Assembly (NCBI RefSeq): GCF_048403405.1
Contig: NZ_CP183129.1
Length of the DNA: 64,000 nt
Reading direction: 5' to 3' (one strand)
Source: Escherichia coli
GTDB taxonomy: Bacteria; Pseudomonadota; Gammaproteobacteria; Enterobacterales; Enterobacteriaceae
In this document: piece after piece, positions 32,528 through 32,839 of the stretch
Numbering within the stretch: the first letter of the stretch is position 1
How the letters are laid out: each line of letters starts with the position of its first letter
The notes under the pieces: model-generated
The model's database searches: none
The model's input: the letters and a program-made list of their open reading frames with translations, nothing else
Told to the model about the DNA's origin: nothing
Position numbers and translations under genes: made by a program

Positions 32528-32539
32528 AAGTATGCACAC

Positions 32540-32559
32540 GGGCAGCACGACGCTGCCCG
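32540..32559 (+). terminator. Putative terminator hairpin after dapD
   Basis: gggcagc-acgacg-gctgccc perfect stem 13 nt after the dapD stop; the downstream T-tract is weak. Confidence 0.5.
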
Positions 32560-32839
32560 ATTGCTTTCTGGTTCAGAATAATTCGTCCTACTCATTCTTC
32601 TTCCCCTTTTTTAAATACTTTTTCATCTTGTTTCGGACTGTCATGTAATTCGCAAAACAAAGATAAATGTGCTAATCCATCCCATGGAATATCGCCACAA
32701 TAAAGCAGGTAATTTTTTGATTTTTACGCCATGATAGAAGTCTGGAAGAAAAAGGCTTTCTGCGATCACAGTCGAGCCGGGCGGGCCAGGCCAAATGCTA
32801 AAATAAGCACAATTTACTGACTCATTTTGAGGTAACGCT

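Follow-up and report, generated by a model that had tools for sequence, protein, structure and literature searches.

In Escherichia coli K-12 MG1655, the gene yaeI (b0164; 813 bp) separates dapD from yaeH, has the same orientation as both, and encodes a protein of 270 amino acids with a Metallophos domain and a twin-arginine translocation (Tat) signal. K-12 YaeI matches the families NCBIfam NF008460 (phosphodiesterase YaeI) and Pfam PF00149 (Metallophos) and shows a partial, sub-threshold similarity to LpxG. A pan-genome study counted yaeI among the accessory genes and found it to be enriched in phylogroup A (PMC5422975), and a binding site of the RpoD holoenzyme has been reported in the K-12 spacer between yaeI and yaeH (PMC3946193). 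The same interval is described here for a 64-kb stretch of E. coli DNA (contig NZ_CP183129.1; hereafter the window), in which dapD and yaeH are separated by a spacer of 312 bp (positions 32528-32839). The comparison of alleles indicates, with a probability of about 0.85, that dapD-yaeH is a multi-allelic locus at which the window carries the commonest E. coli allele, the deletion scar of a block of two genes, yaeI and a 236-amino-acid open reading frame (ORF) named orf236.

The gene order glnD-dapD-yaeH-cdaR-degP was checked. In the window, glnD (29000-31672) is followed by dapD, the spacer and yaeH, with both genes flanking the spacer on the plus strand, and then by cdaR and degP on the opposite strand. 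The spacer holds no credible gene: the ORFs that touch it are one of 120 amino acids, out of frame inside dapD, and two of 77 and 40 amino acids on the minus strand, overlapping the start region of yaeH, and all are implausible as genes. RefSeq places no annotation within the spacer of strain CFSAN061763, which is identical to the window at this junction. No YaeI similarity was detected by tblastn with K-12 YaeI in the 64-kb window (best E = 0.30, outside the spacer), and neither an ORF nor a pseudogene of yaeI was found in the spacer, where an nhmmer profile of the block matched the non-coding left flank only. The initial annotation, which reported that yaeI was missing from between dapD and yaeH and that the 312-bp spacer had no long ORF, is thus borne out by the ORF list and by tblastn. 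The K-12 gene order that it gave was correct, and the features that it noted in the spacer are present, namely a dapD terminator hairpin and an AT-rich stretch (35% G+C in the allele-specific part, against 53% in dapD).

In pairwise BLAST against K-12, homology on the left stopped at 32562 and on the right resumed at 32690. The flanks were 97-99% identical, and the 150 bp upstream of yaeH 99%. Between these two points K-12 holds 842 bp, made up of yaeI with 18 bp before and 11 bp after it, whereas the window holds 127 bp (32563-32689) without similarity under strict BLAST. This arrangement, here called the K-12 type, was also that of E. albertii NBRC 107761, the E. coli species representative and E. 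whittamii, while Escherichia sp. E1V33 carried the short type, with 94% identity to the window over the spacer.

A longer interval was found in Escherichia sp. MOD1-EC7003, in which yaeI is followed by orf236. Of the 5426 E. coli genomes a single one, GF43, had the same long allele, dapD-yaeI-orf236-yaeH; E. albertii CP117570, an enterobacterial contig and Pseudocitrobacter cyperus had it too, always at the dapD-yaeH locus. In GF43, MOD1-EC7003, E. albertii CP117570 and P. cyperus the ends of the block are homologous to both ends of the window spacer. On the left, window 32536-32582 aligned with positions 3129-3175 of E. albertii locus L085, where yaeI starts at 3174, and homology to the block ended at the position of the yaeI ATG, 32582 (nhmmer envelope, spacer positions 1-56). 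On the right, the stretch from 32659/32670 to 32839 aligned with the 3' end of orf236 and its downstream region in four block alleles, the extension to 32659 being seen against the E. albertii allele.

The right-hand homology includes coding sequence. The last 16 residues of orf236, CEPVPWGIA[R/T/K]IKQVIF, are conserved across genera (S replaces C in P. cyperus), and window 32670-32720 is in register with them without gaps, reading C, stop, SIPWNIATIKQVIF, stop against CEPVPWGIATIKQVIF, stop in intact orf236. The first of these stops is an in-frame TAA, and the final one is TGA at 32718-32720, the same stop position as in the intact gene. The best orf236 match in the whole window by tblastn was 32670-32717, with 75% identity over 16 amino acids (E = 0.003). 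With respect to the long allele, the window lacks about 1.47 kb, comprising the entire yaeI and about 90% of orf236, and holds 76 bp of unexplained sequence instead. Homology of both spacer ends to the ends of an intact block and residual coding sequence in register with a disabling stop are marks of a deletion scar. The initial annotation had held that a yaeI-like coding remnant in the spacer would speak against the absence of yaeI; no coding remnant of yaeI was found, but the spacer retains the leader of yaeI as far as the position of the ATG, and 16 codons of orf236. The coordinates of all features are given in Table 1.

Table 1. Features of the dapD-yaeH interval in the window (CDS, coding sequence).
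Feature	Position	Strand	Basis
dapD CDS, 274 amino acids, intact	31703..32527	+	ORF list; RefSeq annotation of the identical sequence in CFSAN061763
dapD terminator hairpin (8 pairs, 7 of them G-C), then a weak T tract	32539..32559	+	Terminator scan
Diverged remnant of the leader between terminator and yaeI start codon	32560..32582	+	Local alignment, nhmmer
Orphan core, 76 bp, 35.5% G+C, specific to the short allele	32583..32658	.	No detectable homology in the searches made
orf236 3'-end remnant	32659..32720 (secure 32670-32720)	+	Alignments to GF43 L082, L013, E. albertii L085, L087; translations; tblastn
yaeH upstream region (promoter, leader, ribosome-binding site), common to short, K-12-type and long alleles	32721..32839	+	
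yaeH CDS, 128 amino acids, DUF3461, intact	32840..33226	+	ORF list; RefSeq annotation

The K-12 type retains a shorter part of the same gene end, about 10 codons of orf236 (from 32690 onward), whereas the window has 16 or more. The bases matching 32670-32689, at least 13-20 bp of them derived from orf236, were missing in all K-12-type alleles examined. Since the K-12 type is without orf236 bases that the short allele holds, the short allele does not derive from it; nor does the K-12 type derive from the short allele, because it has yaeI. Nothing at the junction marks the excision of a mobile element: besides the terminator stem, only chance repeats of 8 nt were found, in agreement with the lack of repeats first reported, and the annotation of the long, K-12-type and short alleles examined shows no mobility gene at the locus (a scan for tRNA genes was not run).

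Under the proposed history, the Escherichia ancestor would have carried dapD, its terminator, yaeI, orf236, the yaeH upstream region and yaeH, that is, the complete two-gene block. One deletion would have taken most of orf236 and given rise to the K-12 type dapD-yaeI-yaeH. Another, of about 1.47 kb, would have reached from the yaeI start codon to some 50-60 bp before the orf236 stop and produced the short type, with 76 bp of AT-rich sequence of untraceable origin left at its junction. The allele structures, their frequencies and breakpoints and the orf236 remnant are observed; from the alleles compared we infer this direction of change and the independence of the two deletions, and the alleles probably spread through recombination in the flanking core genes.

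Frequencies were counted in 5426 complete E. coli genomes. A 701-bp junction query matched in 5424 of them and, in an evenly spaced sample of the ranked matches, most covered it in full and had dapD and yaeH as their only annotated genes, while the others were split around yaeI. The 127-bp segment of the short allele was present in 3338 genomes (61.5%), in one copy each, and yaeI DNA in 2084. As the two counts sum to 5422, against 5424 genomes matching the junction, yaeI and the short segment are essentially mutually exclusive. K-12 is therefore in the minority at dapD-yaeH and the short allele is the majority form of E. coli, so that the "strain lineage lacking yaeI" envisaged initially exists but comprises most of the species. 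The short form was found in CFT073, O157:H7 Sakai, IAI1 and HS, with spacers of 311-314 bp; these strains belong to phylogroups B2, E, B1 and A, respectively. Among carriers, BLAST identity within the 127-bp segment (gaps counted) reached down to the 90-95% band. This divergence, the 3338 genomes and the occurrence in another Escherichia species indicate that the short allele is old.

Several points weigh against the history proposed. The outgroup scan, made with YaeH as query and one genome per species, returned 80 loci, none of them from E. fergusonii, E. marmotae, Shigella or Salmonella; the ancestral state of Escherichia is thus drawn from one representative per species. The orphan core is not derivable from any of the block alleles sampled, which means that the short allele did not arise by a simple one-step deletion, or that its source allele lies outside the sample. 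The mutual exclusivity of yaeI and the short segment is a matter of counts. Finally, about 12 bp at the K-12-type junction may or may not derive from orf236, which makes the exact K-12 breakpoint uncertain.

A different history would take the short spacer as the ancestral empty site, with a later insertion of yaeI, alone or together with orf236, in K-12 and related lineages. Most genera of Enterobacteriaceae indeed have no yaeI between dapD and yaeH, and the enrichment of the gene in phylogroup A (PMC5422975) would fit an insertion. In about 70 Enterobacteriaceae outside Escherichia the two genes were 110-125 bp apart without yaeI and, as in the window, those of the block-free genera (Citrobacter, Klebsiella, Enterobacter and others) are adjacent and on the same strand. 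However, their spacers have another terminator and another sequence upstream of yaeH, and align with the window only at the ribosome-binding site. The hairpin of the window is of the type seen in genomes with the yaeI block and is shared unchanged by the alleles of K-12, GF43 and E. albertii; another hairpin occurs in block-free genera. The yaeH upstream region of the window (32721-32839) is 99% identical to K-12 and identical at 117 of 119 positions in Escherichia sp. E1V33. In Pseudocitrobacter, the difference between block-carrying and block-free alleles extends over all of the intergenic sequence between the dapD stop and the yaeH ribosome-binding site, and there too the window spacer differs from the true empty site. 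Because its terminator and yaeH upstream region, as well as its yaeI leader, are of the block type, the short spacer is a scar of the block and not an empty site. Insertion is further contradicted by the last 16 orf236 codons, with their stop and a further in-frame stop, since it cannot account for the end of orf236 already lying in a supposedly empty site. An insertion into an ancestral short spacer is accordingly considered very unlikely.

Two Enterobacter loci showed wider gaps. In Enterobacter wuhouensis (L054) and Enterobacter sp. BIGb0383 (L062), dapD and yaeH were 2590 and 649 bp apart, respectively, without yaeI-like sequence, which points to other insertions at this intergenic site in Enterobacter.

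The 76-bp core was compared with several collections. It gave no match to the yaeI-orf236 block with an nhmmer profile built from five blocks, and local alignments of the two scored at the level of shuffled sequences. In the complete E. coli genomes it was found only at the dapD-yaeH locus, and nothing real was found in plasmids or phages: the plasmid matches were mislabelled chromosomes of 0.4-4.9 Mb, and the phage matches were chance matches of 27 nt in Streptococcus and Enterococcus phages. A T-rich part at about 32605-32630 bears a loose resemblance to the yaeI codons for PPFKILFLADLH, but was rejected as an unproven yaeI remnant; its alignment scores were 19 and 16, against a shuffled mean of about 17.5 (standard deviation 2), and the five-allele nhmmer profile detected nothing there. 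A minus-strand ORF of 23 codons, running from a CAT at about 32593 into the dapD terminator, was rejected by inspection for its non-conservative substitutions among strains and a length-variable upstream tract. Strains differ in the length of a C/T tract at about 32599-32611.

The core could have a non-coding function, for instance as a regulatory sequence for yaeH or as a small RNA, and have been kept by selection after taking the place of yaeI-orf236. It is identical to Escherichia sp. E1V33 at 72 of 74 positions, against 80.7% and 85.3% at the third codon positions of dapD and yaeH, and 32619-32657 (approximate limits, judged from the alignment) is nearly invariant in all of the seven short alleles compared, E1V33 alone differing, at one position. 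On the other side, no family of Rfam 15 scored above threshold; the only candidate, sroE, lay on the minus strand over the terminator, with 21 bits against a gathering threshold of 51. The core folds no better than shuffled sequence (z = -0.9), and the promoter scan found no promoter-like sites in it. A profile of identity in 100-bp bins gave comparable or higher patches (98-100%) at other nearby gene starts and 90-95% in the bins of the core, so that a special constraint is not convincing and none is claimed. The segment is moreover remodelled in one genome, BS-04. For these reasons a selected element in place of the two genes is held to be very improbable.

A less common form of the short allele, with a spacer of 297 bp, is that of BS-04 (L096 1729-2025, equivalent to window 32570-32690). 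Its orf236 remnant is 28 bp shorter, it has a T/C-rich insertion of 13 bp, and its left part is remodelled.

An extremely unlikely origin is the recent, clean deletion of yaeI, of about 0.7 kb, from a K-12-like arrangement in the source lineage, which was one of the two possibilities raised in the initial annotation. The net difference of 715 bp and the similarity of the flanks to K-12 agree with it, yet each allele holds sequence that is absent from the other: the proposed alignment to K-12 set 127 bp against 842 bp, and those 127 bp, orf236-derived bases included, have no K-12 counterpart. An allele shared by 3338 genomes and another Escherichia species is, furthermore, old. An assembly or sequencing artefact in the source genome is of negligible probability, given that the 701-bp junction is 100% identical in independent complete genomes such as CFSAN061763 (NZ_CP042899.1) and 21AH004 and that thousands of genomes have the same architecture.

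The yaeI alleles of E. coli are themselves unusually divergent. Identity to K-12 yaeI was 90-95% in 261 E. coli genomes and 80-90% in 75, with BL21 (94%) and APEC E956 (87%) as examples, which points to deeply separated haplotypes or to alleles imported from other species of Escherichia. In strain 1506 (NZ_CP059288.1), yaeI is split by an IS1-like insertion element (an IS1X2 family transposase is annotated inside the match). Window 32528-32562 and the 3' end of dapD exist in two haplotypes with about 82% identity over 55 bp, one shared by the window, Sakai and CFT073, and the other by IAI1, HS and Escherichia sp. E1V33. These haplotypes ignore the species boundary, and are thus consistent with a recombination breakpoint at the dapD stop or terminator. 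CFT073 (L091 2834-3292) has an IS200C transposase between degP and cdaR that is absent from the window.

The product of orf236 belongs to a small conserved family marked by invariant Cys and His residues. It had no match in Pfam, NCBIfam or PADLOC. Its structure model was confident (predicted local distance difference test, pLDDT, 89.8; predicted template modelling score, pTM, 0.89), and gave no significant match among solved structures. More speculatively, dapD-yaeH may be an old multi-allele site exchanged by recombination throughout the Enterobacteriaceae, the intact form of which would be an undescribed YaeI-orf236 module, and the core, instead of being debris of the junction, may have come to regulate yaeH; we regard this as unlikely.

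In the short allele the dapD terminator and the yaeH upstream region are intact. Polar effects would therefore not be expected, and the only expected effect is the loss of YaeI, a non-essential accessory metallophosphoesterase. K-12 is unrepresentative at this locus, YaeI being missing from about 61% of complete E. coli genomes; because it is accessory and mostly absent, yaeI phenotypes seen in K-12 screens will not hold for most strains. The locus also offers an example of two common alleles that would have decayed independently from a rarer and more complete ancestor, and of an apparently empty intergenic region that holds a recognisable scrap of a lost gene. No new mechanism is suggested, and the practical value is small.

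Compared with the described K-12 locus (b0166-b0164-b0163), the window is alike in flanking genes, their order and strand, and the dapD terminator hairpin. The short junctions of CFT073, Sakai, IAI1 and HS share with it the architecture, the orphan core and the orf236 remnant, and differ only slightly, in the length of the C/T tract, in the two terminator-region haplotypes and in a few substitutions. The feature of the window is an ordinary majority allele of an already known accessory-gene polymorphism. To what was known of yaeI this comparison makes a modest addition: the short allele is best read as the old scar that remained of a two-gene block, with an origin separate from that of the K-12 allele.
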